Virus record (IMG/VR): IMGVR_UViG_3300023179_000082
Location: 10,220 to 74,219 of that record
Source of the DNA: a virus
Reading direction: 5' to 3' (one strand)
Length of the DNA stretch: 64,000 nucleotides
Shown here piece by piece: positions 1 to 64,000 of the stretch. The notes under the pieces were generated by a model. It was not told the origin of the DNA and searched no databases. It was given only the letters and a program-made list of their open reading frames with translations. The translations under genes and the position numbers were made by a program. Position 1 is the stretch's first letter; each line of letters starts with the position of its first letter.

Positions 1-3000
1 TGTGTTAGCACCATCCCATGAAGTAATTGTACTGCGATAACTTGTTCTATCTAAACGAATGGTTGTTCTTAATTCACGTGTTGGGCGACTTGTTGTAAAT
101 GCAACAGCACGTGCAGTTTCACCAAATACGTGACCATTACCCACCGCATTGCCATAAATCATCACAGGATCATCGTTATAATTAACATCACCTTGTCTTG
201 CCAATGCTGCTGCCTTATTGTTAAACAAAAATAAACTATTTGATGCTATATTAACACGAACATAATAGTAAGCACCATCTGTCAATCCTAATGGTGGTGT
301 GCTACCTTCTTCAACACGATAACGTACACAATCACCACTTATGAAATTAGTTGCTGCTGTTAAGTTAATACGATTAGTTCCCACACCAAAAGCATTAGCA
401 TTGAAAGTTTCTTCAAAAGCAGGTTGTATAAGGATTTCAGGTTGTTGTGCATAACCTGAACCACTATCATCTACTTGTATACCAATAACACGATCATTTG
501 CCATAATAGGCGTAAGTTGCGCCTCTGTTCTTGGCTCAGGGAATTGTGCTAAATCAATAACCGCATCAATAGTTGGTGGATTAGCATAAGCACGACCTGT
601 TTCAATAATAGTAACAGGGTCAAACGATAATAACACTTCAGTATTAGGATTGTGTGTGGCAATGGTAGTACCGAAACGTGCACGTGATAAACCTGCTAAA
701 CGACCACGATAATAATCAACAAAGTTATAACCTATAATTTCATCATCAATTTGGATGTAACCGATTGCTGGCATACCGTAGGCGTTAGAAACAAATATAC
801 TTGTAGCATCTAAGCTAACAAATCGACGTAATACTGCAATAGAAACATTCTCTGCTTCACTTTGATCAATACTTAAACCATAATTATTATACCAATTAAC
901 ATATTCACTTGTTGTCCATATTGGGTTAGATGGTAAGTATTCATTATCTTGTGCTTGAGTTAGTTCATATACTAAGATTGGACTTTCATAATTAGCCAAT
1001 GATTGTACATAACGTGAAGGTACATCAAAATCAGTAATATCACCCTCAAAGATTTCCGTACCAACATAACGGAAAGAAAAATCTTTAATAACTACATGGT
1101 ATGGTTTTACTTCATTTAAGTAACCACTCAAGAATTCTTGATTGTCACGTTGGAACTTTTCATAAGGAATAAGTTCTCTTATAGTATGTGATACATCAAT
1201 CAAGCTTGTTTTATTCAACCATGGCAAATAATTTTTACGCTGTTGCGCTTCGCTCATGATGTAATTAAACATTAGAACTAATGAACGATTTCTTTCAATT
1301 TGTAAATCACCAATAAAGATTTGTTCATTTATTGCACGAATAACATAACGTATAGGTAATGATACTTCATTTAAGTCAGTATTGGTATATAAGGTTGATG
1401 AAAATTGTATAGTACCATTTTCTATACCAATTAATACCCATTCGTTATTAAGATAGGCATAAAATACTGCATTACCACTTGTTGATGTTACTGATACTCT
1501 AGCAACTAATCCTTCTCTTGCTGTGACTGCTGCTAATTCAGGCACGCTTTGTACTTGAACTTGTGCTTTAGTTGCATTACTATAGCCACTAACCCAATAA
1601 TTCTCATAACTCCAAAAATCAGTAGTATCCCATCCTGTTCCACTTTCATTAAGGAAAGTCATCACACGACTTTCAGTAACAGGGTAATTAATTAATACAT
1701 TGTTAACATAAGTTATATAATTTTCTAATGCTAATGTACGATCTCTGAACATGCTTTGACGATACACATTGCTTGTACCATAACGAACTAATAATGGTAA
1801 ATTAGTATCAGGCACAGGTTGTGCTAAAATATCACGTCCTGCAAAACTATTAATATATTTTAAATATAATCCTTGTGGGTCTTGCTGACCAACTCTACGA
1901 ATATTTGGTATACCATTTAAGAAATCAAATGGATCATTTTGTTTGATTAAATTAAACTCAACATGTTTGTTATCAAAATTAACATTGTTTGAATAACCAA
2001 TGTGTAATGCACTACTATTAGCTCTAATGTATGTGTTAGTATTGTATAGTGCTACAGCATTTGTTCCAATTGGTGCAAGATAAGCAATTCCTGATCCTAT
2101 TGGGTTTAAAATGTATGAAGCAATAGTCGATGTATTTAAAGTTTTACCAATCTTAGTATCAATGATTGGGTTATTTTCTACCCAAAAATAATACAACGAT
2201 ACTAAACTGTTTGTGTTATTATCTTGTACGGTTACTGTGACATAATTGTCAAAGTTACGTGGTGTGCCTGGTCCCGCATAGTTTAGCGGATCCACCGTAC
2301 TTTCTGTCCAACGATAAACAAGTGGTAAACTACCAACAAATGGTTGACCCCAATGTTTTGCATTATATACGCTATATGGTGTAGAAGTTTCGCCATAAAC
2401 ACTTTGATGTGTATCCACCATTCGTATATTACTTGGGTCAAACCATATTCTACCAACCATGTCTTTTGTCCATGCAGGTGAATTTACTCCATATCCTGCA
2501 GGATCTTTCATTGTAATATAATCAATATTACTTTCTAATGCACCAAATAGTTTGCCTTGTATTGGATCAATATAATCTAAATATTCCAAATCAGTATTGT
2601 CAATGGTATCGTATATTGAAATATATTCTAACTTATTGATATTGACAGCAGCAAGAGGCGCACGTATAACGTTCCAAGTTTGCTGATTACTACTTGTAAA
2701 TTGCGTAACACGACCTACATCAGGTGTACCCCACATTGGGCTTGTTACTGTAATCACACTGTCTCTAAAAGCAATGCCACCACTGCCATACATAGGCTGT
2801 AGTCCATAGTTTCCTATGTTGTAAGTTGGGTCATTGGTATATTCTGCGAAGACGTACTTGCCTGGGTTGGTGATGTTTTCATTGGCTGCAGGTAAGTAAT
2901 CATAAACTAATACTTCACCAAATAAAGGCCATTGATCAATAAAGGTAGTTGCTCCCCAATCAAATATAGTGTCATCGTTTAAATAATTGTCGCTAAAATC

Positions 3001-15779: not shown

Positions 15780-18700
15780 TTACACAACATTTTGATCACT
15801 TGTCTCACCTGCTTCACCTTTTAACAATGCTGCATATGCTGCTTCAGCCGCTTCTTGACTTTTAAGTCTTGAATCTGCCTTTTCTACCCACAGTTTCAAT
15901 AATCTTAAATAAGCGTCTTTATTAATTTTTCCTTCTTCATAATTCTGACTAATCTTTTGTCTATATAAAAGAAGTTCTTTAGTTTTTGCTGTTTCTTCTT
16001 GTACCTTTTGATATGCTTGCTCTAATGCTGATAATTGCTCATTTGGTTCTTCTTGTTTATTTTCTTCGGGTGTGAATACAGGAGCAGGTATACTTGAATC
16101 ACCTACTAAACTACCTGCTTTTGCAACAATAGCATTATTATTAAACGTACCTGTGGCAATTGTTGGTATTTTAAAAGCACCTGCACTTGTTCCCAATGCT
16201 CCTAATCCTGCGTTAAGTTTTCCTGTTATACCACCTACTGACTTTGTTAAATCACCTTTTACAACATCTAAGCTAATATTAGGAGCAGAAAGTGCGTTTG
16301 GTAATGACGCTAAACCACCTGCTGCTTTTGTCAACGAACCACTTACCGCACCTGATAATGAATTAACTAACCCCGCAGCAGGTGATGAACCTTGTAATAA
16401 TCCACTTAATGAACCTGCTGCACCACCTAACCCAAGTGTTGAACCAATTTGTGCAAGTGGGTTAGCGGTGGCGGTGCCTGGGATAGCGTTTTTCACTGTG
16501 TTTACCATAGCTCCGATGCCGCCTGGGAGGGCGTTAAGACCACTTGTTGCGCTTGTAGCTACTTCTCCTATACCACCTGTAATTTTATTTGCTAATCCTT
16601 GCATATTTTGTGCGTTAATTACACCACCTGCTGCACTTGGTAAACCTGTTGCTGCTCCTGCAACAATACCTTTGGCATCTTTTTCTAATTCTTGATTAGC
16701 TTGTTTTAATTTTTGTAATGCTGCATCCCATGCTGCTTTATTATCATCAGTTTTATCAGCAAAGTAAGTATTCGATGCTTCTTTAACTTCTTTTTCTAAC
16801 TGCGCAATATTGGCAAACTTTTTGACAACATCACTTTGTGGTAATACAGGATTTCCACCACCACCGACATTAGGTATATTTGCTTTGAAACTTGTAAATG
16901 ATGACTCAATACCACGGAATGCTTGTTCAGACAATGACACTAACTGCCCTGCTTTACCTTGAATTGAACCTAACAAACCGCTTACTGCACCACCTATCGC
17001 ACCTGCAGCTCCGCTTAAAGCACCTGCTGCGCCACCTAATGCACCTGTTGCTCCACTTAAAGCACCACCTAATGCACCTGCTACACCACCTAACGCACCT
17101 CCTAGTGCACCAACCGCACCACTAATTGCACTACCTGCAGCAGTTATTGCACCATTAATTGCTCCACCAATACTAGCAGCAACACCTGCGCCACCACTTG
17201 ATAATTTGTCAGCTAAACCACCTGCAAAGTTTCCACTTGCTAAATCATTACCAATTTTAGCAACAGCTTGTGCATTACCACCTAATGCTTGGGTTACAGT
17301 GCTTATACCTTGATTTGCAACAGCCATTGCCATACCTGCCATTTGTGTTGGTGCAAGGTTTGGTGTCAATGCACCCGTTGATTGTAATTGTTGTACACCT
17401 TGATTAACATTTTGTACAAATGCACTAGCTTGCGCTCCAACATTGTTTAATAATTGCTGTGGCGTGGAAGCACCTAATACACCTGTTAATAAATTAGAAC
17501 TGATTGCTTTATCAGGTGGTAATCCTGCTTGTAACGCTCTGTTAACGATAACGTCAGCGCCTGGCTTCATGAGACCTGCGTTCATCATTTGTGTTACGGT
17601 AGATACACCTGCACCAACCACGCCTTGTGCTGTGGCTGCAGCAGTACTTAAACCTGCATTGTTTACTGCATTTTGTGATACCATAGCCAATGTAGTAGGT
17701 GTTGGCAAAGCATTCTTAGATGGTATAGGCACATTAGCATTAGCTGCTGTTACTGATGTTGATACAGGAGTGGTAGGGGCACTAGGCGCAGAATCTAACA
17801 CTGCTTGTGTGGCAGCAGGTGGTTGTGGTGGTGCTAATGGTGCAACTAAATTAGCCTGTACAGGTACCCCACCTGTTGAACCATTGGTCTCTGCCATAGG
17901 ATAGTGTGTTGGAGCACGTGTTACAATACTTTGTAATTTTAGTGGTGAACTAAACCAACCTTTTTCTTGTGAATAAGTTGTATCATTATGATTTTTAGGT
18001 TCATTTTTTGGCACTTCTTCAGGTATAGTTCCTGTAGCACCTGTGTTTAAGTTTATTTTTGGTCCACCATTAATAAAGGTAGTTGCCTTACTTGCAAAAC
18101 TTGCATCACCGCCACTTTGCAAACTCATTGCTCCACCAACAAATGTAGTATGTTTACCACCTGCACTAACCGCATGATCAGTGCCTACACGTTGAGTAAA
18201 TGTTGTATCACTTTCTATACCAATGCTTTCTGCTTTGATTCGTAATTCTTTTTTTGCATTGATATTAATATTTTGATCAGCATGAAAGTTAATATCTCCC
18301 AATGTTCTAACATTAAAACTATTAGTAGAAAATAAATCAATAGCACCTTCACTGTTTAATTCAATCCAACTTTGCCCATTACTATGAATGATAAACAATG
18401 TTTGTCCATCATCACTCATTGTAATTTGATGACCTGCTGCACTACGTAACCTGATTTGCTGATTCTTTCCGTCAATAGTACCATCATCCATGACAAGTGA
18501 ATGACCACCTGTACGACCTATAACTTTAAATTTTTTAGGATTTTTTTCGTTTTGAATAGCTTGTTTGATTGTTCTATTATTAAAACCACCTTCGTAGATT
18601 TCGCCGCCTGGGGTGCTGATGCCAAACACTCTACTTGGTGTTTCACGATATGAACTACTACTAATCACACCACGTGTTGTATCACGTATTAAACCTTGTT

Positions 18701-19289
18701 GCGCCAAAATAGCTGCTTGATAACTATGTACAGGACGTGGTTGATCGTAAAAAGTAGAACTATTATTGACACCATCGTTATTAGTATTGATTTCACTTGT
18801 TGGTAATGCATCTGCTGCACCATAGGCATTAGCCTCTGTAGCATTTGGTATAAACCTCTTGTTCCCAGGCGCCACCGCAGGAACCATATTATGTGATTCT
18901 ATTTTTGGTATACATCCTATATAATAACCTTGATTAATAGAACCATTAACAAATACACAAATTACTTCAGTGCCAATATCAGGTGGTGTAGCCCAAAAAC
19001 CATAACTTTGTGGATTATTTTTAAAATCACCATAAGAATCACCTGCACTGCTACTATCTAATACACCATAAAATGGACTCATATAACGTACAGGAATCCA
19101 ATATGCATTATCTTCGGGGTTATTACTTTGTTGTAATCCTGCTATCCATACTTGAATAATACCACTATGACATGCATCAATGGTTGATTTAACAATGCCA
19201 ATACGTGGTTCTGTAATTAAAAACGCATTACCACGATCAGTTTTAAGTTGGTCAGGTACTCCTGTTGATTTTTGTATATTGTTTGCCAT
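15780..19289 (-). CDS. gp5: Baseplate hub / central spike protein (gp5/VgrG-like OB-fold plus beta-helix) with long Gly/Ala-rich C-terminal extension
   Basis: YGFWATPPDIGTEVICVFVNGSINQGYYIG (OB-fold motif), RTGGHSLVMDDG and RSAAGHQITMSDD followed by beta-helix-like repeats. No lysozyme domain was recognised. Confidence 0.75.
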   Translation of the reverse strand: MANNIQKSTGVPDQLKTDRGNAFLITEPRIGIVKSTIDACHSGIIQVWIAGLQQSNNPEDNAYWIPVRYMSPFYGVLDSSSAGDSYGDFKNNPQSYGFWATPPDIGTEVICVFVNGSINQGYYIGCIPKIESHNMVPAVAPGNKRFIPNATEANAYGAADALPTSEINTNNDGVNNSSTFYDQPRPVHSYQAAILAQQGLIRDTTRGVISSSSYRETPSRVFGISTPGGEIYEGGFNNRTIKQAIQNEKNPKKFKVIGRTGGHSLVMDDGTIDGKNQQIRLRSAAGHQITMSDDGQTLFIIHSNGQSWIELNSEGAIDLFSTNSFNVRTLGDINFHADQNININAKKELRIKAESIGIESDTTFTQRVGTDHAVSAGGKHTTFVGGAMSLQSGGDASFASKATTFINGGPKINLNTGATGTIPEEVPKNEPKNHNDTTYSQEKGWFSSPLKLQSIVTRAPTHYPMAETNGSTGGVPVQANLVAPLAPPQPPAATQAVLDSAPSAPTTPVSTSVTAANANVPIPSKNALPTPTTLAMVSQNAVNNAGLSTAAATAQGVVGAGVSTVTQMMNAGLMKPGADVIVNRALQAGLPPDKAISSNLLTGVLGASTPQQLLNNVGAQASAFVQNVNQGVQQLQSTGALTPNLAPTQMAGMAMAVANQGISTVTQALGGNAQAVAKIGNDLASGNFAGGLADKLSSGGAGVAASIGGAINGAITAAGSAISGAVGALGGALGGVAGALGGALSGATGALGGAAGALSGAAGAIGGAVSGLLGSIQGKAGQLVSLSEQAFRGIESSFTSFKANIPNVGGGGNPVLPQSDVVKKFANIAQLEKEVKEASNTYFADKTDDNKAAWDAALQKLKQANQELEKDAKGIVAGAATGLPSAAGGVINAQNMQGLANKITGGIGEVATSATSGLNALPGGIGAMVNTVKNAIPGTATANPLAQIGSTLGLGGAAGSLSGLLQGSSPAAGLVNSLSGAVSGSLTKAAGGLASLPNALSAPNISLDVVKGDLTKSVGGITGKLNAGLGALGTSAGAFKIPTIATGTFNNNAIVAKAGSLVGDSSIPAPVFTPEENKQEEPNEQLSALEQAYQKVQEETAKTKELLLYRQKISQNYEEGKINKDAYLRLLKLWVEKADSRLKSQEAAEAAYAALLKGEAGETSDQNVV

Positions 19290-29534: not shown

Positions 29535-29578
29535 GTCTCCTTAGGTCTAACATCTTACTTTTACTCCAATTTAGGTCT
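29531..29578 (+). repeat. Three direct repeats of TTAGGTCT at 29531, 29541 and 29571
   Basis: Exact 8-mers spaced 10 and 30 bp apart. Confidence 0.8.
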
Positions 29579-29592
29579 TTATTATAGAACAA

Positions 29593-30043: not shown

Positions 30044-30134
30044 CTTTTTGCAAAAAAGATAAACGGAAAAATAATAATAAAAAAAAATATGAGTGTACGT
30101 GGCTGAAGCGATAGCGTAAGCTTAGTACACGAAT

Positions 30135-30153
30135 AGATGACCTTTGGTCATCT
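30135..30153. terminator. Perfect hairpin AGATGACC-TTT-GGTCATCT at the point of convergent transcription
   Basis: 8-bp inverted repeat abutting the stop codon of the minus-strand gene 30153..30380. No long U-tract is adjacent, so a terminator role is tentative. Confidence 0.45.
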
Positions 30154-40593: not shown

Positions 40594-40654
40594 ATTGACA
40601 TAATTTATAAAATAATATAAATACATGTTATATTCAAATGTTATTGGATCTAAT

Positions 40655-45300: not shown

Positions 45301-46760
45301 ATAATGTTTTTATGCCACCAACTGCCCCACCTGGCTTGTCTCAATACACAGCATTATTGGCTTTGGGTACAGAGGGAAGTTTTACAGATATAACAGGAAG
45401 AAATAATTTTAGAGCCGTCAGTAATGCCCAAAATAATACTGCTAACCCAAAATGGCAAGGATTATCTTCTATTTTCGTTAATGCGATTAATCAAGAGCAA
45501 GAATATACAACTGCGGGTACGTATACATTTATTGCACCTGGAGGTTTTTCATCAGTAAGTGTAGTTGCTATTGGTGCGGGGGGAAGTTCAGCTATAGCCA
45601 CTGGTGGTGGTGGGGGTGGTGGTTTAGGATATGCAAATGTATCCGTAACAGGTGGTTCACCCTATACGGTAGTTGTTGGTGGGGCAGGTGGTAGAAACAC
45701 AGCTACCGCAGGGGGGCAATCATATTTTTCAGCCACCAATGTTGTTGCAGGTAATGGCGGTGGTGGTTCACCAACTAGAACAGGTGGGGGATTTGTAGGA
45801 AATGGTGGTGGAAGCGGTGGGACTGGATCAAGCGTCAGCGGAAATACAGGAGGTTCAGGTGCGGGTGCTGGGGGATACGCCGGTTCTGGTGGAAATGGAA
45901 ATGCAAGCGCACCTGCAGGTGGAGGTGGTGGTGGCGGTTTTAATGGAAGTAACGGATCAGGTTGGTCAGGTGGCAGTGGTGGTGGCGGGGTAGGAATTTA
46001 TGGTCAGGGGGCAAGCGGTGCGGTAGGTGCTTGGACTACTGCAACCCCCTTTGTTCAAAATACAGGTGGAGGTGGCGGTTCAGGTGGCACACCAGGTGGT
46101 GGTGCAGGATCAACCGCAAGTGCAATGCCTGGTGGTGATGGTGGTTTATATGGTGGTGGCGGCGGTTCGGGGATATTAAATCAGGGAGCTGAAACAGGTG
46201 GTGCTGGAGGTAGAGGCGCAGTAAGGATTGTTTGGGGAACAGGTAAAAATTACCCTTCGACAAACGTTACATCAAATATAATAAGTGGTTATTTGATTTC
46301 AAACAACACAAGTAATTCACTAGCTTTTGGGACGGGTAATTTTACACTTGAATTTTGGATCTACCCTACTATATCAGGATCTTACACACTTATTGATACA
46401 CGTGCAGCATCAACAGCAACACCTTACACAGTATCAATTGATAGTAGTAATTTTCCAAATATATATGATGGAACATCAACATTTACTAGTACAGTAGCAG
46501 TTACGGTAAACACTTGGAATTTTGTTGCATATTCAAGATCATCAGGAACTCTTAATATTTATGTAAACGGCACAAGAGGTTACAGTGCAGCTAATTCTAG
46601 TAATTTTACAGGAGCAGGAACCCTAAATTATATTACCAATAACGTTGGATTAACCTCTTATTTTAACGGATATATCCAAGATTTAAGAGCTACTGTAGGA
46701 GTTGGTCGCTATACAGCAACAACAATGGATGTACCAACTGCTCCATTAACAAGTTTTTAA
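42318..46760 (+). CDS. Tail fibre / receptor-binding protein with five LamG (concanavalin A-like) domains and an inserted Gly-rich module
   Basis: Five copies of the (G)xxFT(I/F/L)ExW/F motif, each followed by a WxHVA/WNFVA-type strand. Gly-rich block near the C-terminus. Confidence 0.8.
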
Positions 46761-46896: not shown

Positions 46897-47598
46897 ATGA
46901 TTGAAATAATCTATACTCTAGTATCTACTCATATCACAATACTTTGTGTAACCTTATATCTTCATCGTAGTCAAGCACATCGTGGTATAACATTCCATCC
47001 TATTATATCGCATTTTATGCGATTTTGGTTATGGTTAACAACTAGTATGGTTACTAAAGAATGGGTTGCAGTCCATCGTAAACATCATCGTTATACTGAA
47101 AAAATAGGTGACCCACACTCACCACATGTTTTTGGCATACATAATGTTTTATTGCGTGGTGCATGGTTATACAATGTAGCAACAAAAGATAAAAATATGA
47201 TTAATCAATATGGTGTCGGTACACCAAGTGATTGGATTGAAAACAATTTATATAGTAAATACACTGTACATGGCATTTTATTTCTTCTTATTATTAATAC
47301 CCTTATGTTTAATGGTTGGGGCATTGTTATTTGGTTCATCCAAATGGCATGGATTCCTTTTTGGGCTGCTGGTGTTGTTAACGGTCTTGGGCACTACGTG
47401 GGTTATCGTAACAACCATACCAACGATCAATCCAAAAATTTATTCCCAATTGCTATAATTATTGGTGGCGAAGAACTACATAATAATCACCACGATAACC
47501 CATCAAGTATAAAACTCAGCCAAAAATGGTACGAGTTTGATTTAGGATATGCATGGATAAACTTACTCAAGTTTTTAAGGTTAGCAAAATGTAAATAA
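46897..47598 (+). CDS. Membrane fatty-acid desaturase (delta-9 / DesA-DesC type), auxiliary metabolic gene
   Basis: Three His boxes HRSQAH, HRKHH and HNNHH; GDPHSP; hydrophobic segments; WYEFDLG. Confidence 0.9.
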   Translation: MIEIIYTLVSTHITILCVTLYLHRSQAHRGITFHPIISHFMRFWLWLTTSMVTKEWVAVHRKHHRYTEKIGDPHSPHVFGIHNVLLRGAWLYNVATKDKNMINQYGVGTPSDWIENNLYSKYTVHGILFLLIINTLMFNGWGIVIWFIQMAWIPFWAAGVVNGLGHYVGYRNNHTNDQSKNLFPIAIIIGGEELHNNHHDNPSSIKLSQKWYEFDLGYAWINLLKFLRLAKCK

Positions 47599-48264: not shown

Positions 48265-51200
48265 ATGGCTCTAGAAATTATTAATATTGGTGTATTACCA
48301 AACGATGGCACAGGTGATCCTGTACGTGTTGCCTTTGAAAAAATTAATTACAATTTTAATCAAGTTCAAAGTGGTAACACATTTAGCTATGTAAGCGGTC
48401 CTGAAGATAGCGTACAATATAAGAAAACAAATGACTTACAAGCAGTTGCGGTAAAAGGTAATATTACGTTAGCTGTCGGATTTCCTGCACGTGCTTACAC
48501 AAGTATTGGTAACCTAGCAACAGCCAATTGGGTTGAACAATCATTACCAACTAACAATAATATAAATGATTTAATTGTTGCAGGAGCTAATTTTTGGGGA
48601 GTTGGGGCAAACGGAACGGTAGTTACTAGTGTTGATGGTGTAACATGGGCAAATGCTATTACCGCTAGTAATGTTAACTTAAATGCGGTAATTTTTGATA
48701 GTGCTAATACATTATTTGTTACAGTAGGTGATAATGGAAAATTATTAACAAGTGGTAATGGTGTAACATGGACAACACGAACTACAGGAACATCGGAAAA
48801 TTTGCATGGTATTGCATTGTCACCAAATGTTGGGTATGTTGCTGTTGGAGCAAATGGTACATTAATCTATAGTTCTAACGCTATAGCATGGACAAGTGGT
48901 AATAGCACAGTTTCAACTACACTGCGTGATATTGTATATAATGGTAATGTTTTTACTGCAGTAGGTGACAGTGGTACAGTAATTAGTAGTTTAAACTTAA
49001 CATCATGGGCAAATCGTACAAGTTCAGCTAATATCAGCGTAAATTTAAACAGTGTATCATATGCAAATATTGCTAATGTATTAACATTAGTAGCAGTTGG
49101 TGCAAACGGGCAAACTTATAAAAGTGTTGATGGTAATGCGGTAACATGGACAAGCATTGTAGATCCATTATCAAGCAATTTAAACAGTATTGTTCGTGGT
49201 GCTAACGCATTTGTTGCAGTTGGTAATACAAGCGCAGTTATTAATTTAGCTGATAGTGCAAATACATGGAGTAATGTTAGTTTACCAACAAGAATGGAAG
49301 GTAATATAAACTTTTTATATGACCAACCTAATGCAAACTTGTTACTTAATGCTAATATTATACCACAAGCAAATGGTAATATTAGATTAGGTACAGCAAA
49401 TAACAGAATAAACACTGCATTTTTTACTACATCAAATTCAAATACTGCTATTGCATCGAACTTATCTGTAACTAATAGTGCTATTGTAGCTAATTTAACT
49501 GCCACTCAAGCAACAATTACAACCTTTAATGTAACAGGTTTATCGAATTTAGGAAACATTTCCAACGTTACTATTTTGGGTGGAAATAATGGTTATTTTC
49601 TACAAACTGATGGTTCAGGTAATTTAACTTGGGCACCTGCAGGTAATGGAGGTGGTGGTAATGGCAGTCCAGGTGGCGCAAACACTCAAGTACAATATAA
49701 TAACGCAGGTGATTTTGGCGGTGATGCGGGATTTACCTATAATGATGTAACAAATACTTTAACTGTCAACACGATTAGTTCATATAATCAGACAGTTAGT
49801 AATAATATATCAACTAATACTGCAACAGTTGTAGGAAATTTAACATCAGGTAATGCAAGCTTAGGGAATTTAGCCACTGCAAACTATATTAATGTAAATT
49901 GGGATGTATCTGCTAATGTAATATATGGTAATTATTTGTATGGAGATGGTTCAAACTTAACAAACTTACCATATTCATCAAATGCAAATTATGCCGCTTA
50001 TGCAGGTGAAGCATTTTTAGTAAGTGGTTCAAATGTTGTTGGTGATGTTGCTAATGCAAATTATGCGAATTTTTCAGGTAACGCATATTCAGTTGACGGA
50101 GCTAATGTTGTTGGTGAAGTTGCTAATGCAAATTATGCTTCATTTGCTAACGTAGCAAACAGTGTAAGTAGTCCTGTTGCTAATGCAAATTATGCGAATT
50201 TTGCAGGAAATGCTTTTTCGGTAGATGGTGCTAATGTTGTTGGTGAAGTTGCTAATGCAAATTATGCAATGCATGTTGATGTTGAACCTGTATTAGATAA
50301 TTTCAGTTATCATGTTGTATTGGTAGCAAATCCTGGCGACAATCATCTTAAGGTCGATGGCGATGATCAACTACAATATAACCCACAATTTGGTATTTTA
50401 ACATCAAATCGTGTTGATGCAAATTTATTTGTAGGTAATGGACATTTTCTCACTGATTTAACAGGTGCTAATGTAACAGGAGAAGTACCATATGCTAACA
50501 TTGCAAACTCTGTTGCTGGTGCAAATGTTACAGGAACCGTAGCAAATGCTAATTATGCAGCATTTGCAGGTAATGCAAATTTTGCATCCAATGTAGCATA
50601 TGCGAATGCTTCTAACACAGCGAATTCCGCTAATACATCTAATGTTGCTATCACGGTAAGTGGTAATGCTCAACCAAATATAACAAGTGTTGGAAACCTG
50701 ACAACATTAAATGTTACAGGAGCATTATTTGCAGCAACGGGTAATTTTTCAGGTAATGGGTCATTTGGTAACTTACAAGTAGTCAATCAAATACGTGTTG
50801 GTTCAAATATAATAGCTAATGTTGGTTCTAATCTTATTGCCTATGGCAATGTTGATTTTTATAATGCAACTGATGTAAACCTTGGTGAAATTACAGAATT
50901 ACATATATCAGGTGGATCGAATGGTTATTTCTTACGTACAGATGGTGCAGGTAACCTAAGTTGGGCAGCAGTTTCTAATGGTGGAAATGCTGTCACCCCA
51001 CCAGGCGGTTCAAACACTCAACTACAATATAATAATGATGGGAATTTTGCAGGAAGTGCAGCATTAGTATTTGACAATACAAGCAATGTATTAACTGTAA
51101 GTGGTCCGCTAGTTGCAACCCAACTTTCTGTTTCAGGTAATATTGGTGGCGCAAATGCTAATTTAGGCAACTTAGTTATTGCAAACTTTTTCCAAGGATC

Positions 51201-53520
51201 AGGTAATAGGTTATCAAATATACAAGGTGCTAATGTTTCAGGTACGGTAGCTAATGCAAATTATGCTGTATCTGCTAATTTTGCTAATACTGCAACCAAT
51301 GCAAACTATGCCAATTATGCAAACATTGCAAGTGTTTCTAACCTTACATTATTTGCAAATACTGCAAATACTGTGGTTGTTAATGCACAACCAAACATTA
51401 CAAGTGTTGGTAATTTAGTTAGTCTTGTAGTAGATGGTAATTTATATTCTAATAATTCCAATGTTGAAGGTAATGGTTCTTATGGAAACCTACAAGTTGT
51501 AAATGAAATTAGGATTGGAAATACTTTTATTGCTAATTTTGGTTCTAACCTTATTGCATATGGTAATGTTGATTTTTATAACGCAACTGATGTAAATCTT
51601 GGTGAAGTTACAGAATTACATATAGCAGGTGGATCTAACGGATATTTTCTACGTACAGATGGTGCAGGTAATTTAAGTTGGGCGGCAGTTAGTAATGGAA
51701 GTAATGCCAATGTTAATGCTGCGGGATCAAACACTCAGGTACAATTTAACGATGGTAATGCGTTTGGTGCAAGTGCAGCATTTGTTTTTAACAAAGCAGC
51801 AAATATATTAACAATTACAGGTGGAATTGTTGCATCATCATTGGGTACTACTGCTAATATTACAGCAGCAAATGCAACGCTTGGTAATTTAGTTGTTGCC
51901 AACTTCTTCCAAGGTTCAGGTAATCGTTTATCTAACATTCAAGGTGCCAACGTAAATGGTGAAGTTGCACTTGCAAATTTTGCCACTTATTCTATTAGTG
52001 CCAATTTAGCAAACACTGCCAATATTGCTAATACTGCGAACAATGCAAATTTTGCTACTTTTTCAACAAATTCAAATGTTGCTATCACAGTAAGTAATAA
52101 TGCTCAACCTAATATAACTAGTGTTGGTAATTTGACAAACCTAGTAGTAACAGGGGGAATTTTTGGAAATACAGGTAATTTTACTGGAAATGGGTCATTC
52201 GGTAATTTACAAGTTATCAATCAAGTAAGAATAGGTTCAAATTTAATAACAAATGCAGGATCTAATCTTATTGCATATGGTAACGTTGATTTCTTCAATG
52301 CAACAGACGTAAACCTCGGTGAAGTGACTGAACTACATATCGCAGGTGGTTCAAATGGATTTTTTCTTCAAACTAATGGATCAGGTAATTTAACATGGGC
52401 ACCTGCTTCGGGCAATGGAGGAGGTTATCCCCCAGGCGGCTCTAATACATATGTTCAATTTAATGATGGTGGAGCTTTTGGTGGAAGTGCAAATTTTTAT
52501 TATAATAAAACGACTAACTTATTAACTGTAAATGGCAATATTAGTGGCAGTAATATTAATAGTTCAGGTAAAATTACTGCAACAGGAAATATTCAAACTA
52601 ATTCATTTTTTGTTGGTAATGGTATTTACATTACAGGGATTAATGCTGAAACAGCCAATTATGTAACTCAACCTGCTCAATCTAATATAACGTCAGTAGG
52701 TAATTTGATATCGTTAGATATAATAGGTGACTTAACAAGCACAGGTAATGCAGCATTTTCAGGTGATATAGGTGCTAGTAACATTAACTTAACCCGAAAT
52801 GTTACGGCAAGTAATGGTACATTTACGGGAACACTGAGAGTTAATTCAGCAGGAACATTAAGAAGTTTAGGTAATGTAGTTTTTGCAGGTTCACCTAATA
52901 TTTCTTTAGGTACTGTAGCTAATATTCGTATTACAGGCGGCACGAATGGATATGTATTATCAACTGATGGATTAGGTAATTTAAGTTGGGTAACGCCTGG
53001 CGGGGGTGGAGGAAATGGCTCACCAGGAGGTTCAAACCGTCAAATTCAATACAATGATAGTGGTGCATTTGGTGGTAGCCCATTCTTTACTTTTGATAGT
53101 TCAGTTAACAATGTTACGATTGGGGGCAATTTAATTGCAAATACCATTACAATTGGTAGTGGCATTTACCAATTTAGTCAATCAAATGTTTATTTTGCAG
53201 CAACAACTAGTAATGCAGCAAACCAAGAAATAATTTCAATTCCCACAGCAAATCTTGCAGGTATTGATTTTACTATTCTTAGTGATGATATTGGTGGAAA
53301 TATTAGAACTCTAACTAAAATTTCGTCCGTGGTATTAGGATCAGTTATTAATTATAATGAAACTAGTAGTTTAGCAGTTAATGGGTATACAGGTGATTAC
53401 GTTGTTCAATATAACCCAGGCAACATCACTCTAGCACCATCTGCACAATTACTTTTTTCTCCTCAATCAGCAAATTATACTACGTTAAAAATGATGATTA
53501 CAACGTATAAAGAACTGTAA
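48265..53520 (+). CDS. Asn-rich fibre protein: baseplate-attachment N-terminus, BNR/Ycf48-like propeller, repeated shaft modules
   Basis: NDGTGDPVRVAFEKINYNF N-terminus (gp9/gp10-like), SxDG/NGxTW repeats, and three copies of NAQPNITSVGNL...YGNVDF(Y/F)NATDVNLGE(I/V)TELHI. Confidence 0.75.
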   Translation: MALEIINIGVLPNDGTGDPVRVAFEKINYNFNQVQSGNTFSYVSGPEDSVQYKKTNDLQAVAVKGNITLAVGFPARAYTSIGNLATANWVEQSLPTNNNINDLIVAGANFWGVGANGTVVTSVDGVTWANAITASNVNLNAVIFDSANTLFVTVGDNGKLLTSGNGVTWTTRTTGTSENLHGIALSPNVGYVAVGANGTLIYSSNAIAWTSGNSTVSTTLRDIVYNGNVFTAVGDSGTVISSLNLTSWANRTSSANISVNLNSVSYANIANVLTLVAVGANGQTYKSVDGNAVTWTSIVDPLSSNLNSIVRGANAFVAVGNTSAVINLADSANTWSNVSLPTRMEGNINFLYDQPNANLLLNANIIPQANGNIRLGTANNRINTAFFTTSNSNTAIASNLSVTNSAIVANLTATQATITTFNVTGLSNLGNISNVTILGGNNGYFLQTDGSGNLTWAPAGNGGGGNGSPGGANTQVQYNNAGDFGGDAGFTYNDVTNTLTVNTISSYNQTVSNNISTNTATVVGNLTSGNASLGNLATANYINVNWDVSANVIYGNYLYGDGSNLTNLPYSSNANYAAYAGEAFLVSGSNVVGDVANANYANFSGNAYSVDGANVVGEVANANYASFANVANSVSSPVANANYANFAGNAFSVDGANVVGEVANANYAMHVDVEPVLDNFSYHVVLVANPGDNHLKVDGDDQLQYNPQFGILTSNRVDANLFVGNGHFLTDLTGANVTGEVPYANIANSVAGANVTGTVANANYAAFAGNANFASNVAYANASNTANSANTSNVAITVSGNAQPNITSVGNLTTLNVTGALFAATGNFSGNGSFGNLQVVNQIRVGSNIIANVGSNLIAYGNVDFYNATDVNLGEITELHISGGSNGYFLRTDGAGNLSWAAVSNGGNAVTPPGGSNTQLQYNNDGNFAGSAALVFDNTSNVLTVSGPLVATQLSVSGNIGGANANLGNLVIANFFQGSGNRLSNIQGANVSGTVANANYAVSANFANTATNANYANYANIASVSNLTLFANTANTVVVNAQPNITSVGNLVSLVVDGNLYSNNSNVEGNGSYGNLQVVNEIRIGNTFIANFGSNLIAYGNVDFYNATDVNLGEVTELHIAGGSNGYFLRTDGAGNLSWAAVSNGSNANVNAAGSNTQVQFNDGNAFGASAAFVFNKAANILTITGGIVASSLGTTANITAANATLGNLVVANFFQGSGNRLSNIQGANVNGEVALANFATYSISANLANTANIANTANNANFATFSTNSNVAITVSNNAQPNITSVGNLTNLVVTGGIFGNTGNFTGNGSFGNLQVINQVRIGSNLITNAGSNLIAYGNVDFFNATDVNLGEVTELHIAGGSNGFFLQTNGSGNLTWAPASGNGGGYPPGGSNTYVQFNDGGAFGGSANFYYNKTTNLLTVNGNISGSNINSSGKITATGNIQTNSFFVGNGIYITGINAETANYVTQPAQSNITSVGNLISLDIIGDLTSTGNAAFSGDIGASNINLTRNVTASNGTFTGTLRVNSAGTLRSLGNVVFAGSPNISLGTVANIRITGGTNGYVLSTDGLGNLSWVTPGGGGGNGSPGGSNRQIQYNDSGAFGGSPFFTFDSSVNNVTIGGNLIANTITIGSGIYQFSQSNVYFAATTSNAANQEIISIPTANLAGIDFTILSDDIGGNIRTLTKISSVVLGSVINYNETSSLAVNGYTGDYVVQYNPGNITLAPSAQLLFSPQSANYTTLKMMITTYKEL

Positions 53521-53571: not shown

Positions 53572-56103
53572 ATGGCACTTAAACCACTTAATTCAGTCGG
53601 CGGTTTCTCAGTAGGGGAAATTCCATCAAACGTTATTTTAGGTAATGGAGATATTACCACTTCAAATGGTAACTTTAGCTACAGTATAGCTGCAGGAAAT
53701 GTTCTTACAAACAATTTAAAGTATGCTAATGGATCACCATGGGATCTACAAGAAGCAGCAGGTGCTAACAAACAAATCCAATACAATGAAGGTAATGGTA
53801 ATTTTGGTGCTAGTGCAAATTTTGCGTTTGATTTTGCCAACAATACATTAGATCTTAATGGAAATATTCTTTTAGGTGGAACACAACAAAATCAAGTTGT
53901 CAACTTAAGTAATAATGCTTTAGAAATTCGTGGTGGATGGAATGCAAGTAGCGGGTCAGCCGTTAATATTGAGGCAGGTGATTATAGTAACAGTAGTAAT
54001 TGGGGTAAAATAAGCATTCAAGGTAATTTTGCAGGTAATTCAGTGGGTTTTGCTGAAGCCAATGCGTTTATTTTTTCTACACCTGGGTATGGTGCAGGAA
54101 ATATTGTAAAAATAGATACACTTAATATTAATGCAACATCAAATTCAACAGGTGCTGTACAAATTGCAGGTGGCATTGGGATTACGGGAAATGCCTACAT
54201 TGGGGGAAATATTTACGCCAATAATTTATCAGGTAATATTTCAGGTAATGTTACCGCAGGTGGTATTAATACTTCTGTTCAATTTAATGACGCAAATACT
54301 ATTTCAGGTGGAAATTACTTCTTATGGGATAAAGTTTCAAATGTATTGACGGTTACAGGTAATATTAATTCAAACGGTTATATTGTATCACCTAACGATG
54401 CAAACATTAATCTTGAGCCAGGTGGCAACGGATTAGTCGTTATTGCTAACACCGCAGGTGGTGCAACAGCAATTGCTATGGGTGACCCAACACAAGGTAA
54501 TTTAGTAAGTAATGCAGTAACATTAACAAATTCATCATCAGTTTCAAATTCAATTGCACAGTTAAATGAGGTTTTGGGTAAATTAGTTCCTCCTGCTCCC
54601 GCAAATTTCCCACAAGGATCATTATCAATAAGCAGTCTGTCTACTTATCGTATGGCTAATTTTACACAAACTGATAACACGCCTGGGGCGAACAAAAGTG
54701 TTGCAGGTGGTACTACAGTAACAACAGTACGTAGAGCAGCTTCTTATTCAACTAACACGATAGCAAATGTTGGGCCTGGTAATCAAGGGACAATTGCAGT
54801 GTATTTAAATGGTGCTGATGCAGGAAATAGAACATTAACAAATTCTTTAAATGGAAATGGAACTTATAGTAATCTAGTAATTACAAATAATGTAGACTAT
54901 AACAGTGTAAATGCAAATATTCAAGCGGGTTTTTGGTCAGTTTTTTCAGCTTCAGCTTCAGGTACAGTAACTCAAGGGTGGAATGAAGTAAAAATTACAG
55001 ATTCAGCAACAAGTAATACTAATATGCCATCTTGGTATTATGATGCAAGTGCGCCAGGCACACCACAAGTAACAAATACATCAATCACGGCACCTGTGTC
55101 TCCATCTTACACATATTCAAGCACTGTAGCTCATTATAATAATACTAATGCATTTACTATAACTTTTGATGTAAATCGATTAAGTGGTGATATGTATCCA
55201 ACTAGCGATACATTTGTAACAGGTACTTCAGGTGGGGCATTTAGCGCACCTTCAAGCGTAACTTATTCAAGTGCAAGCATAACAACTCCATTGGCACAAA
55301 ATTTATATGTGTCAAGCGGTAATGCATCAATATCAACAACATCATCAATCATTTCAGGGTTTGGTGCATCTAGCGGATCCCCATCAGTATCAGTATTAAA
55401 CAGTTATGCTACGGGTACAGGATCATTTAATCCTAGTGCCAATGTATTATACAAAACAGGAACAGCTTCTACAATGGAAGAAGCTAATATTGTAATCGGT
55501 GGATCAATAGGTAGCGGAGCAGGATTGGCATTTAGAATTCTTAATCCAGGCTCAACCGATACTCCTTCATATAGTGCAAATGCTACTGCTTTTAATAGTC
55601 AATCAAGCACATTACAAACTTATGATGCCACGATTGTAGCAGCTATTATGAAGCATGATCAAACAGATTATTCAACAGGTTATTTGCCAATTGGTCCTGA
55701 CTTAAGCGCAGGGCGAAGCGGATCGCAGTATTTTACATTCAAATTTGTTAGAACTTCTGTATCAAAATTTGATTTTAGATGGACGGGTACAATTGCAGGG
55801 TTATGGGTTGCGTTGCCTGGAAGCGGTATAGATACATCATCTACTTTAAATGGATGGTTAGATGCTTCAATAGCATATGCAGGGGCAGGGCAACCAGGTG
55901 CAGGTACGGGAGGTAATGGTAGTAATGGATGTGCCTTGGGAGGTACTGCACCATTAAATTCTGCGCAAACCAATAAATCAATAACCATAACTTTTGGTAC
56001 TGTAAGCAGTTCAAGTACAGCATCAAATGAAATTTATGTTCGAATTAAATTGACTTCAGGTCAATCAGTAACAGCATTTTCCCTACAACCAGCGAGTAAC
56101 TAA
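53572..56103 (+). CDS. Asn/Ser/Thr-rich virion structural (fibre/appendage) protein
   Basis: It shares the MAxKPLNS N-terminus with 61529 and the GANKQIQYN..GNFGASANF module with its neighbours. Confidence 0.7.
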   Translation: MALKPLNSVGGFSVGEIPSNVILGNGDITTSNGNFSYSIAAGNVLTNNLKYANGSPWDLQEAAGANKQIQYNEGNGNFGASANFAFDFANNTLDLNGNILLGGTQQNQVVNLSNNALEIRGGWNASSGSAVNIEAGDYSNSSNWGKISIQGNFAGNSVGFAEANAFIFSTPGYGAGNIVKIDTLNINATSNSTGAVQIAGGIGITGNAYIGGNIYANNLSGNISGNVTAGGINTSVQFNDANTISGGNYFLWDKVSNVLTVTGNINSNGYIVSPNDANINLEPGGNGLVVIANTAGGATAIAMGDPTQGNLVSNAVTLTNSSSVSNSIAQLNEVLGKLVPPAPANFPQGSLSISSLSTYRMANFTQTDNTPGANKSVAGGTTVTTVRRAASYSTNTIANVGPGNQGTIAVYLNGADAGNRTLTNSLNGNGTYSNLVITNNVDYNSVNANIQAGFWSVFSASASGTVTQGWNEVKITDSATSNTNMPSWYYDASAPGTPQVTNTSITAPVSPSYTYSSTVAHYNNTNAFTITFDVNRLSGDMYPTSDTFVTGTSGGAFSAPSSVTYSSASITTPLAQNLYVSSGNASISTTSSIISGFGASSGSPSVSVLNSYATGTGSFNPSANVLYKTGTASTMEEANIVIGGSIGSGAGLAFRILNPGSTDTPSYSANATAFNSQSSTLQTYDATIVAAIMKHDQTDYSTGYLPIGPDLSAGRSGSQYFTFKFVRTSVSKFDFRWTGTIAGLWVALPGSGIDTSSTLNGWLDASIAYAGAGQPGAGTGGNGSNGCALGGTAPLNSAQTNKSITITFGTVSSSSTASNEIYVRIKLTSGQSVTAFSLQPASN

Positions 56104-56106
56104 AAA

Positions 56107-61528: not shown

Positions 61529-63274
61529 ATGGCAATAAAACCACTCAATTCAATAGTGGGGTATTCGGTTGGTGGTAACACCGTTTCTAATATAATTTTA
61601 GCAAACGGTGATATCACCACAAATAATATTACAGCAACAGGAATAACCAATTTAGGAAATGTTGGCAATGTCGTTATAACAGGTGGCAGCGCAAATTATA
61701 TCCTAAAAACTGATGGAACAGGTAATTTATCATGGACTGCTCCTGCTTCTACTTTAACTGTGTACGAAAGTAACGCTAATGCAGGTAATATTTCTAATAC
61801 CACAGCAAATGTTTCGGGATTATTGTTTGATAAAGATTCAGGATTCTCTGTATCAAATGTTGGAAGTGGTAATGTTTTAATATCATTGGGTAGTACATTT
61901 AAAACATGGGTGGTTACAGGACAGCCAAATCTTGTTGCACAAGCTGAAGATACTGTTCAATTTATCGCAGGTAACAATCTTGTTATAACAACAAGTAATA
62001 CACCTAATCCACCTTCGCAACTTTACAAATATATTCGTTTTGATGCTGATGTACAATATGTAAGTAATGGTAATAGTAACATTGCTATTCCTTCTGCTAA
62101 CGGTAATGTTAATATTTCAGCAGTAGGTAACGCTAACGTTTTAGTTGTTACAGGAACAGGTGTCAATGTTGCAGGTACAGCCAACATATCAGGTAATGCC
62201 AATGTAGGAAATATTGGAGCTACAAATGGTATATTTACCACAGTTGCAGGAACATTGACAACTGCATCACAGCCAAATATTACTTCAGTTGGAACTTTAT
62301 CATCATTATCAGTTAGTGGTAATACAACAAGTGGCAATTTTATAGGAACATTTGCTAACGGAAATAGTAATATTGCAATACCATCTGCAAATGGTAATAT
62401 AAATTTTAGTGCAGCAGGAAATGCTAATGTTTTAGTAATTTCAGGCACAGGGATTAACGTAAATGGTGACAGTTTAATTACGGGAAATTTAACTGTTGAT
62501 GGAAATATTACTTATTTAAACATAGATACATTAGCGGTAGAAGACCCAATAATTCAATTACAAACAGGGGCAAATGGTGCTGCTCCTACTAGTAATTCAG
62601 GAAAAGATGTTGGTACAGGATTAAATTATTATGATACGCAAGCTCGTATTGCTTTTATGGGTTGGGATGTAAGCAATGCAGAATTTGGTATGGCATCCCA
62701 AGCTAGTATATCAAGTGAAATTGTAACATTTAGTACATATGGTAATTTACGTTTAGGTAATTTGATAGGTGCGGTAGCTAATGGCAACAGTAATTTCAAT
62801 ATACCTGCAGCTAATGGGAATATTAATTTAAGCGTAGCAGGTAATTCTAATGTACTAGTAGTTACAGGAACAGGTATTAATGTTTCAGGTACATTAAATG
62901 CAACAGGTAATGCCAATGTAGGTAATATAGGCGTACAACTTGTCACGGCTAATTCACTGATTTCAAATAGATCAAATGTTTCAGTTACAACCAATACCCT
63001 ATTAGATGAGTTCCCCCCTTCCACATATAGAACAGCTAAATATACTATAAGTGCGTCAAGTGATAATGGGTATCAGTCAGTTGAAACACTATTAGTGCAT
63101 GATGGTACGAATTCATATATAACAGTTTATGGAAGTATTTGTAGTAACGTTTCAAGCGACATTCTTGATATCAGTAGTAACATAAATGGCACATCAGGAA
63201 ATGTCACATTGTATGCTACATCAGTTAGTGCAAATACTTTAGTAAAGGTAATAACTATGTATTTAAAAACATAA
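61529..63274 (+). CDS. Asn-rich virion structural protein
   Basis: Three NGNSN(I/F)xIPxANGN(V/I)N repeats, a LAVEDPIIQL motif and a C-terminal YRTAKYTI...LLVHDG domain. Confidence 0.7.
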   Translation: MAIKPLNSIVGYSVGGNTVSNIILANGDITTNNITATGITNLGNVGNVVITGGSANYILKTDGTGNLSWTAPASTLTVYESNANAGNISNTTANVSGLLFDKDSGFSVSNVGSGNVLISLGSTFKTWVVTGQPNLVAQAEDTVQFIAGNNLVITTSNTPNPPSQLYKYIRFDADVQYVSNGNSNIAIPSANGNVNISAVGNANVLVVTGTGVNVAGTANISGNANVGNIGATNGIFTTVAGTLTTASQPNITSVGTLSSLSVSGNTTSGNFIGTFANGNSNIAIPSANGNINFSAAGNANVLVISGTGINVNGDSLITGNLTVDGNITYLNIDTLAVEDPIIQLQTGANGAAPTSNSGKDVGTGLNYYDTQARIAFMGWDVSNAEFGMASQASISSEIVTFSTYGNLRLGNLIGAVANGNSNFNIPAANGNINLSVAGNSNVLVVTGTGINVSGTLNATGNANVGNIGVQLVTANSLISNRSNVSVTTNTLLDEFPPSTYRTAKYTISASSDNGYQSVETLLVHDGTNSYITVYGSICSNVSSDILDISSNINGTSGNVTLYATSVSANTLVKVITMYLKT

Positions 63275-63308
63275 GCACTACAAAGATTAAAACAGGGAAT
63301 ATGGAACT

Positions 63309-64000
63309 GTGGCACTAAAAAACTTTAACGTTAAAAACGGATTAACTACGGGTAATATTACCCTCACTGCAAGCAATAGTAACATTGCAGCACATACTTA
63401 TTTTGGAAATATTGTTGTAAATAGTTCTGCAAATTTAGGTAATGTAGGTAATGTTATCATTACAGGTGGCAGTAATGGACAAGTCCTTTCTACTAATGGT
63501 AGCGGTAATTTAAGTTGGACAACTATTAGCACAAGTTCTATTTCTAATGGAAACAGTAATGTTTCTATACCTGCTGCTAATGGTAATGTTAATATTAGTG
63601 CAGCAGGTAATGCCAATATATTAGTAGTTACAGGTACGGGTGTTAATGTTTCGGGTACATTAAATGTAACAGGTAATGCCAATGTAGGTAATATTGGTAC
63701 AACAGGAATTATCGCTACAGGTGTATCAAATCTTGGAGCAGTTGGTAATGTCATTATCACAGGTGGTAGTAATGGTCAAGTATTAAGCACAAATGGTAGC
63801 GGTAATTTAAGTTGGACAACTATTAGCACAAGTTCTATTTCTAATGGAAACAGCAATGTTGCTATACCTGCTGCAAATGGAAATATTAATTTAAGTGTAG
63901 CAGGTAATGCTAATGTATTAGTTGTTACAGGAACAGGAGTAAATGTTTCGGGTACATTAAATGTAACAGGTAATGCCAATACAGGTAATTTAGGTGTTTC
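63309..64000 (+). CDS. Asn-rich virion structural protein, truncated by the window edge; 99-aa tandem repeat
   Basis: GTG start gives MALKNFNVKNGLTTGNITL, and the frame stays open to 64000. A 297-nt repeat starts at 63444 and 63741. It is absent from the ORF track. Confidence 0.75.
   Translation, partial: MALKNFNVKNGLTTGNITLTASNSNIAAHTYFGNIVVNSSANLGNVGNVIITGGSNGQVLSTNGSGNLSWTTISTSSISNGNSNVSIPAANGNVNISAAGNANILVVTGTGVNVSGTLNVTGNANVGNIGTTGIIATGVSNLGAVGNVIITGGSNGQVLSTNGSGNLSWTTISTSSISNGNSNVAIPAANGNINLSVAGNANVLVVTGTGVNVSGTLNVTGNANTGNLGV

Follow-up and report, generated by a model that had tools for sequence, protein, structure and literature searches.

The stretch of DNA analysed here, 64,000 nucleotides of the viral record IMGVR_UViG_3300023179_000082 (the window), raises the question of why the asymmetric four-base word CCAG, which reads CTGG on the other strand, has nearly vanished from it, and what has become of those copies that the encoded proteins do not allow to be removed. 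The window comprises bases 10220-74219 of one viral contig of 74,219 bp (G000), which has a G+C content of 35%, is 21% complete according to CheckV, and is a fragment of a giant (about 350 kb) lake phage with a T4-type core. A preliminary description, made from the letters by eye, had pointed to the avoidance of CCAG, CTGG and CCGG. In this study, we quantified this avoidance against synonymous-codon shuffles and compared it with related viral contigs, thereby revealing a strand-specific excess of cytosine around the unavoidable sites, which the preliminary description had missed and which is the most informative feature of this DNA.

For the counts, 30 genes covering 97% of the contig were called, and synonymous codons were shuffled within each gene, thereby preserving the protein as well as the codon usage of every gene. 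In the window, CCAG was found 22 times, CTGG 39 times and CCGG twice, compared with about 108, 118 and 61 copies predicted from base composition, which bears out the near-complete avoidance seen by eye; likewise, CCTG and CAGG, described as very common, together reach 631 copies versus about 227. The depletion holds when codon usage is controlled by the shuffles. Contig-wide, CCAG and CTGG together number 69 versus 382 (z −21 to −27), the unforced forms CCAGH and DCTGG 13 versus 322 (ratio 0.04), and CCGG 2 versus a shuffle mean of 49. On the coding strand, the copies in the three reading frames are 31/0/0 for CCAG, with 134/20/10 expected, and 0/36/2 for CTGG, with 8/184/26 expected. The depletion acts at the DNA level, in all reading frames and on both strands, in line with the strong selection against a short and asymmetric word that had been proposed, and nearly every CCAG removable by a synonymous change has been removed. 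Since CCA/TGG and CAG/CTG are each slightly over-represented, the depletion of CCAG is also no by-product of a shorter word, the other outcome that the preliminary description had considered.

The dipeptide Pro-Gly is the sole context that forces a site, because all four CCN-GGN spellings contain CCAG, CTGG or CCGG. In the window, 49 of the 61 CCAG/CTGG sites lie within CCWGG, and each of these 49 is an in-frame CCW-GGN Pro-Gly pair, as had been noted for the sites checked by eye; across the contig, this is true for 55 of 56 CCWGG sites, and outside the Pro-Gly frame CCWGG occurs once versus 8.8 times expected. Among the forced pairs, CCW-GGN, which contains one CCAG, is preferred over CCS-GGN, which would give CCGG; the CCGG at window position 14770 is a forced CCG-GGT. 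As a whole, CCWGG is not depleted (56 versus 60 in shuffles). Avoidance of Dcm or EcoRII sites was rejected on this count, as it had been in the preliminary description, and on the observation that the CCWGG sites present are nearly all forced Pro-Gly. The 1.5-fold excess of CAGG/CCTG on the contig (739 versus 493 in shuffles) mirrors the purge, with NCT-GGN rewritten as NCA-GGN and CCA-GNN rewritten as CCT-GNN. A loss of Pro-Gly at the amino-acid level, at which pairwise sums hinted (101 versus 28; 2.0 versus 4.6 per conserved gene set), was rejected by a column-wise count of 7 pairs kept, 2 lost and 2 gained. A sequencing or assembly artefact was rejected as well, because long open reading frames (ORFs) are intact, the changes are synonymous at conserved positions, and relatives obtained from like data are normal.

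For comparison, 80 viral contigs were fetched via the capsid protein (78-90% amino-acid identity), and in all the longer ones CCAG is near expectation. Among 107 loci fetched with the capsid and fibre protein, the median ratio of observed to expected CCAG is 1.02, and only three loci are low (0.14-0.18). These loci come from contigs of 158 kb (G001), 83 kb (G002) and 22 kb (G003), which were then fetched whole. G001 and G002 are sisters of G000, with capsid proteins 98% identical, DNA about 79% identical and third codon positions 64% identical, and they show the entire purge profile of G000; G001 has 16 unforced CCAG versus 558 expected, no CGCG versus 71 and no CAGCTG versus 46. At ortholog positions where the relatives carry an unforced CCAG or CTGG and encode the same amino acids, the site is lost in G000 in 1482 of 1482 cases. 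The losses used any available synonymous change, mainly A<->T transversions: CTGG became CAGG in 411 cases and TTGG in 223, CCAG became CCTG in 362, and CTAG (45), TCAG (12) and CTGA (none) contributed little. A deamination hot spot at 5-methylcytosine was rejected, since these last three words would be its C-to-T products. A footprint of Vsr repair was also rejected, since CTAG is then expected to be depleted and CCAG enriched and the opposite is found here, with CTAG at 157 versus 144 in shuffles; CTGA is enriched genome-wide (269 versus 166).

The forced sites differ from their surroundings in a second way. Each was oriented to read CCAGG and numbered from the first C, which for both coding classes, CCA-GGN and CCT-GGN, places the third codon positions at −10, −7, −4, −1, +5, +8 and so on. 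Across 134 sites of G000, G001 and G003, C on the CCAG strand reaches 3.2-6.4 times its codon-usage expectation from −10 to +17 and 1.7-2.3 times at +20 to +26, and is near baseline (mostly 0.6-1.5) at or beyond −13 and +29; on the 3′ side, G drops to 0.3-0.6 times its expectation. This C halo is recovered in G002 alone and in G003 alone, and in G000 alone C occupies 183 of 495 halo third positions, compared with 50.0 ± 6.2 (maximum 74) in 500 shuffles. C-ending codons are favoured around CCA-GGN and G-ending codons around CCT-GGN, and both classes give the same motif-oriented profile; the halo therefore follows the orientation of the motif and not transcription or translation. Non-purging relatives give a flat profile (0.8-1.1) at both 506 Pro-Gly CCWGG sites and 1,200 other CCAG sites, and so do CCA-X and CCT-X controls in G000. 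Conversely, when the strongest C- or G-biased windows of nine codons were collected from G000, G001 and G003, 28 of the 40 were located at CCAG sites, and the rest are mostly trivial, such as ATG/TGG runs.

The halo can be broken down by the bases that the genetic code permits. At positions of the motif strand that allow T or C, the share of C is 0.6-0.8 instead of about 0.2. Fourfold sites show an increase of C from 0.08 to 0.43-0.51 at the expense of both A and T, with G reduced to 0.01-0.04 on the 3′ side. Positions restricted to A or G on the motif strand show a drop of G on the 3′ side, from about 0.2 to 0.07-0.11. Codon positions 1 and 2 show no shift (0.21-0.22 versus 0.226). The halo thus obeys a rule of more G:C pairs with C on the CCAG strand and proteins unchanged. 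A translational cause, namely slow codons at Pro-Gly, was rejected, because it depends on the Pro codon whether C or G is favoured, and the relatives show nothing of the kind. General GC-rich islands were rejected in view of the unchanged codon positions 1 and 2 and because G is not used on the motif strand. As a separate observation, a weaker second element was seen further upstream, where G on the CCAG strand is enriched 1.5- to 2.4-fold at third positions −25 to −19, in G000, G001 and G003 together, in G002, and in G003 alone.

For individual sites, a halo score was defined as the number of C among the nine third positions from −10 to +17 on the CCAG strand, with a background of about 0.9 of 9. 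A forced site with a full halo is located on the minus strand at 2839..2875 (CCTGG at 2861; 8 of 9 C), and further minus-strand sites with halo are found at 18585..18621 (CCTGG at 18607; 8 of 9) and 19563..19599 (CCTGG at 19585; 7 of 9). On the plus strand, the site at 18855..18891 (CCAGG at 18865) lies inside a minus-strand gene and has 6 of 9 C on the plus strand, corresponding to G-ending codons in the gene, and the site at 37335..37371 (CCAGG at 37345), in a plus-strand gene, has 5 of 9. Genes in window 1-24757 have a mean halo of 4-6 of 9. The plus-strand fibre-type gene with five LamG domains at 42318..46760 contains five forced sites without halo (mean 0.8 of 9), and the neighbouring fibre genes are also weak, with means of 1.8 of 9 at 53572-56103 and 0 at 56107-61491. 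G002 has one weak-halo gene (13 sites, mean 1.1), and in G001 the halo is present in nearly all genes. The weak-halo genes are mosaic and fast-changing, from which it appears that halos build more slowly than the purge.

A comparison of the sisters ties the halo to the presence of the site. There are 17 Pro-Gly sites that only one of the two genomes G000 and G001 possesses; at their halo columns, C accounts for 0.43 with the site and 0.17 without it. Moreover, 13 of 34 common sites are flipped between CCA and CCT in the two genomes, which means that the word moves freely between strands. This freedom bears on the first alternative, a classical Type III system (Mod/Res), which would modify CCAG by methylation of its A on one strand and, once two inversely oriented sites have communicated, cleave 25-27 bases 3′. 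CCAG would be a suitable target, as it contains a single adenine and its complement CTGG contains none, and Type III enzymes with four-base NNAG sites are known: GCAG for HP0593 (PMC3036652) and TGAG for MmyCI (PMC3498834). Their cut lies 25-27 bp 3′ and flanks are said to influence cleavage patterns (PMC2709564; PMC3874151); that the halo fades at +26 to +29, just before the cut position, is compatible with this geometry but maps no cut. However, a silent change from CCA to CCT flips any forced site, and co-orientation of all sites would give full immunity, as for T7 against EcoP15I (PMC3874151). Instead, orientation is unbiased, with 29 versus 40 sites in G000 and 45 versus 50, 46 versus 30 and 7 versus 7 in the other purging contigs, G000 contains 19 adjacent head-to-head pairs, and common sites flip between sisters as described. 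Avoidance of such sites is also rare in phages (PMC6286503). We therefore consider a classical Type III system unlikely, and the lack of an orientation bias favours a factor that acts on single sites.

Besides CCAG, several other words were purged from G000, and those of CGCG, GGCC and CAGCTG had been missed in the preliminary description. Compared with shuffles, CGCG occurs 0 versus 37 times, GGCC 5 versus 35, CAGCTG 1 versus 34 and GCAGGC/GCCTGC 1 versus 13; CGGC/GCCG is partly purged (37 versus 109), GATC is mildly low (148 versus 187) and GCGC is normal (71 versus 62). Four of the five retained GGCC are forced Trp-Pro (TGG-CCN), at window positions 2927..2930, 9098, 26515 and 35270, and none of these forced GGCC sites has a C halo. 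CCGG belongs with the purged palindromes CGCG, GGCC and CAGCTG, and nothing in the data requires one CCRG specificity, so the single CCRG motif assumed in the preliminary description is not supported, although it would still be compatible with the counts. A single motif of this kind would be expected from a Type IV nuclease like MspJI or LpnPI, which would read a modified C in CCRG of cytosine-modified phage DNA and cut 10-16 bases 3′, making CCAG and CCGG one target. Both words are indeed purged together in all four genomes, the halo consists of cytosines, and its strong part ends at +17; enzymes of the MspJI/LpnPI family cleave 3′ of the modified C, at a distance of about 12-16 bases. Against this, LpnPI's CCDG includes CCTG, and this word is 1.5-fold over-represented, a fully C-modified genome would not need a purge of CGCG, GGCC and CAGCTG, and the modification would be required in two unrelated phages (see below). 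In addition, searches with families of N4/N6, C5 and Dam-type methylases and of thymidylate synthase/deoxycytidine monophosphate (dCMP) hydroxymethylase (PF01555, PF00145, PF02086, PF00303) gave no hit in the 338 kb of G000-G003, all of which are fragments (21-61% complete). A Type IV nuclease is thus very unlikely. The related proposal of the preliminary description, that a cytosine modification makes the sites costly or mutable, is likewise not supported, given the dominance of A<->T replacements and the lack of cytosine methylase or dCMP-hydroxymethylase-type genes in these fragments.

The source of the pressure is indicated by G003. This phage has a major head protein (phrog_1328), a portal and a terminase with no relation to the T4 type, and a genome estimated at about 36 kb. 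All that it has in common with the giant-phage clade are modules of its 1,748-residue fibre protein and one small protein. The fibre modules are up to 78% identical over 116 residues to proteins of G001/G002 and 41-68% identical to the products of window 61529..63998 on the plus strand, where two fibre-like proteins are encoded (581 residues, and 230 residues up to the open end of the contig). Nevertheless, G003 has undergone the same purge, with unforced CCAG at 5 versus 80, CGCG at 0 versus 11, CCGG at 1 versus 12 and CAGCTG at 0 versus 7, and it carries the same C halo. Because the purge is absent in about 100 relatives and yet present in an unrelated phage with the same fibre modules, the pressure most likely comes from a common host, as is suggested by the shared receptor-binding modules together with the purged words, and host defence, which the preliminary description had put forward, is retained as the best cause. 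Independently of the purge, this is a case of fibre modules exchanged between a giant T4-core phage (window 61529-63998) and a phage of about 36 kb (L122:4577-9820) with unrelated head genes.

A cause within the phage itself, either a phage-encoded nuclease for the breakdown of host DNA at CCAG or a signal of the phage required to stay rare, would agree with the stability of the purge across a clade with about 36% third-position divergence, and a nuclease-like gene adjoins the capsid gene (40625-42187). However, G003 has the same purge and halo and no nuclease-like gene in common with the clade, the purge is absent from close relatives that have the same core genes, and the four co-purged palindromes point to ordinary host restriction. 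We regard a phage-intrinsic cause as the least probable of the explanations considered.

Concerning the identity of the host, G001 encodes a complete two-piece (permuted) transfer-messenger RNA (tmRNA) at L113:6594-6961 on the plus strand, corresponding to G001 86594-86961. It matches the Rfam families beta_tmRNA (RF01850; 116 bits, threshold 84) and tmRNA_permuted (RF04321; 121 bits) and has the tag ANDETFALAA. This betaproteobacterial-type tmRNA hints at a betaproteobacterial host. The adjoining gene (G001 86949-87956; 336 residues) encodes the only non-fibre protein in common with G003. We screened 401 sampled Burkholderiales genomes, four of which are unpublished (G387, G302, G034, G213), with no claim resting on them specifically. 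No close tmRNA was found in these 401 genomes; partial matches of 73-87% identity are present in 48 of them, in flanks with normal CCAG. Two other routes to the host gave no answer. The desaturase-like gene among the fibre genes (see below) has homologues in many phyla (41-65% identity), and the purge was found in 0 of 55 loci. For a cyanophage host, the evidence is too weak: among cultured phages a fibre domain matches only cyanophage records, at 40% identity over about 120 residues. A psbA-type gene was not found in G000-G003.

Considering these results, we believe that host restriction-type selection, combined with a shielding of the unavoidable sites at the level of their flanks, is probably the correct explanation. 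The host lineage would long have possessed a defence factor which recognises the asymmetric CCAG in double-stranded DNA and acts on each site singly, and would also have ordinary restriction enzymes for CGCG, CCGG, GGCC and CAGCTG. The halo would lower the susceptibility of those sites that cannot be removed, and its asymmetric shape would record, as a negative, the manner in which the host factor occupies or processes the DNA beside its site. Such a factor would probably be a nuclease which binds CCAG and acts some 15-25 bases 3′. It is conceivable, though we hold this more specific proposal with less than even confidence, that the halo is the evolutionary negative of the footprint of an undescribed defence enzyme, which would read CCAG at single sites, cover about 10 bases on the 5′ side and 17-26 on the 3′ side, and be less effective where the flanking G:C pairs place their C on the CCAG strand.

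Several observations weigh against this explanation. A CCAG purge was found in 0 of the 401 sampled Burkholderiales (CCAGCSSS versus reversed control; lowest ratio about 0.6). About 55 forced sites remain in the 74 kb, with which a fully efficient nuclease would still kill, and the benefit must therefore be quantitative. According to the survey of Rusinov et al. (2018), phage avoidance of Type III sites is rare and that of Type I and IIG sites absent (PMC6286503). Finally, halo positions are no more conserved between the sisters than other third positions (0.646 versus 0.637); it is the density of C that persists and not the individual bases, which leaves room for a mutational process triggered by the site. 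We also know of no enzyme documented as blocked by C on one strand of a flank.

Such a mutational by-product would account for the halo and perhaps for the purge, if a host or phage enzyme nicked the CCAG strand about 10 bases 5′ of the site and a patch were resynthesised 5′ to 3′ with a C bias, while selection kept the protein. The sharp 5′ edge (−13 to −10) and the graded 3′ edge (+17 to +26) resemble a patch with a fixed start and a variable end. The strand specificity of the halo and the missing extra conservation of its individual positions are also in agreement, and its weakness in the fast-changing fibre genes suggests that it may grow with the age of the site. Misincorporation of C, however, does not predict the change from G to A on the motif strand where C is not synonymous, codon positions 1 and 2 are unshifted, and the purge consists mostly of A<->T transversions and not of one mutational direction. 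To our knowledge, there is also no bacterial polymerase with a bias for C insertion. A mutational origin therefore appears quite unlikely.

The unforced sites that have persisted in the window had been listed in the preliminary description; all sites listed there are correct, and one, at 42346, had been omitted. Those with the motif on the minus strand are located at 768..771 (CCA-GCA, Pro-Ala, in the giant minus-strand ORF and without C-rich context), 42346..42349 (TCT-GGG), 43309..43312 (GCT-GGT, overlapping the only CAGCTG of the contig at 43306), 47369..47372 (GCT-GGT, in the desaturase-like gene), 50516..50519 (GCT-GGT) and 52184..52187 (ACT-GGA), and one with the motif on the plus strand at 56089..56092 (CCA-GCG, 12 bases short of the end of its gene). 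The others lie in a Gly-rich module of the LamG-repeat fibre protein (45601..46207, motif on the minus strand), with unforced CTGG at 45601, 45823, 45868, 45886 and 46204 and an unforced CCGG at 45880. This module thus holds 5 of the 13 unforced sites of G000. Through its GGN codons, the CCAG strand of the module is C-rich by composition (0.37-0.48 versus a background of 0.18); its unforced sites may be tolerated since they are already shielded, or the module may have been inserted recently.

Besides the fibre genes, the window encodes a T4-type portal (34495-36252) and a gp23-type major capsid protein (39326-40537), and other products of the contig include a prohead protease, gp46/gp47-like nucleases, a tape-measure-like lysin protein and several giant structural proteins. 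The closest cultured phages are PA5oct and the Rak2/CBB-type jumbo phages, which match parts of the head genes at no more than 66-70% DNA identity. DNA of G000 or of near relatives is present in metagenomes from lake, river, aquaculture, wastewater and estuary (11 studies). A single unbroken ORF of 6,387 codons on the minus strand covers window 1-11295 and extends to base 2354 of the contig; its counterpart in G001 has 6,388 codons. Directly 3′ of the capsid gene, a plus-strand gene (40625-42187) encodes a protein of 520 residues whose match to a restriction-endonuclease-like family (PF18741, 25.9 bits) is weak and stays below the cut-off, and in metagenomes the contig depth over this stretch is about 50 times lower than over the capsid gene, as expected of a mobile insert. 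Among the fibre genes, a plus-strand gene at 46897-47598 belongs to the fatty-acid-desaturase family (Pfam PF00487, E 1e-11); it is kept in G001/G002 at 84% identity, and its bacterial homologues (41-65% identity) are spread across many phyla. The sole sizeable gap without ORF, at 29535-30155, gave no Rfam match at gathering thresholds and no transfer RNA (tRNA) or tmRNA call, and tRNA, tmRNA and Rfam matches were likewise not found in the rest of the window. Two further words are rare within genes compared with synonymous shuffles. TAAATA/TATTTA is strongly depleted (53 versus 136), which fits the exclusion of a word like the T4-type late promoter from coding sequence, and GGAG/CTCC (157 versus 292) and GGAGG/CCTCC (31 versus 88) are low, as if Shine-Dalgarno-like words were avoided.

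The deletion of restriction sites is a textbook defence of phages, thought to concern mainly the palindromic sites of Type II enzymes and to stop where the protein forbids a change. Here, an asymmetric four-base word is purged to 4% of expectation, and its undeletable copies are set in an oriented, silent pattern of about 35 bases. The pattern is common to two unrelated phages, and sister genomes gain or lose it together with the site; a description of a one-strand flank signature around unavoidable sites was not found in the literature. If the halo is protective, it would add a new layer of the arms race in synonymous sites and a strong, so far unmodelled constraint on codon choice, and the footprint of the enzyme could be inferred from metagenomes.

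Among known systems, the purge resembles the avoidance of restriction sites in virulent double-stranded DNA phages (PMC6286503), in which short words are also removed silently, nearly completely and in a lineage-specific manner, alongside four- and six-base palindromes. It differs in that the main word is asymmetric with four bases, and in that the unavoidable copies bear a strand-specific flank signature. T7 facing EcoP15I, with its strand bias of CAGCAG (PMC3874151), likewise has an asymmetric site and an escape written in the phage genome; T7, however, keeps its sites and has all of them pointing one way, whereas here the orientation is random although it could be freely chosen, and sites are deleted or wrapped in C. 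Regarding the specificity itself, a knock-out of the CCAG methyltransferase gene hp0944 has been made in Helicobacter pylori A45, and Thermacetogenium phaeum shows CCAG methylation (PMC10689673); together with the GCAG and TGAG enzymes mentioned above, they document the same or a neighbouring four-base specificity in bacteria. These organisms are unrelated, however, and the parts of that source used here mention neither a partner nuclease nor a cut position for CCAG, nor any link to the phage host. In the restriction-poor, first-entering DNA of T5, CCAG and CTGG are purged together with restriction words as well; in contrast to T5, the purge described here is not limited to an early block and spans all 74 kb of the contig (158 kb in a sister), late structural genes included. 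In this comparison, the purge follows a known strategy very cleanly, and what sets it apart is the unusual, asymmetric word; should the footprint reading of the halo be true, it would represent a second, unreported anti-restriction strategy, in which the flanks of undeletable sites are armoured and the geometry of the enzyme can be read from phage genomes alone.

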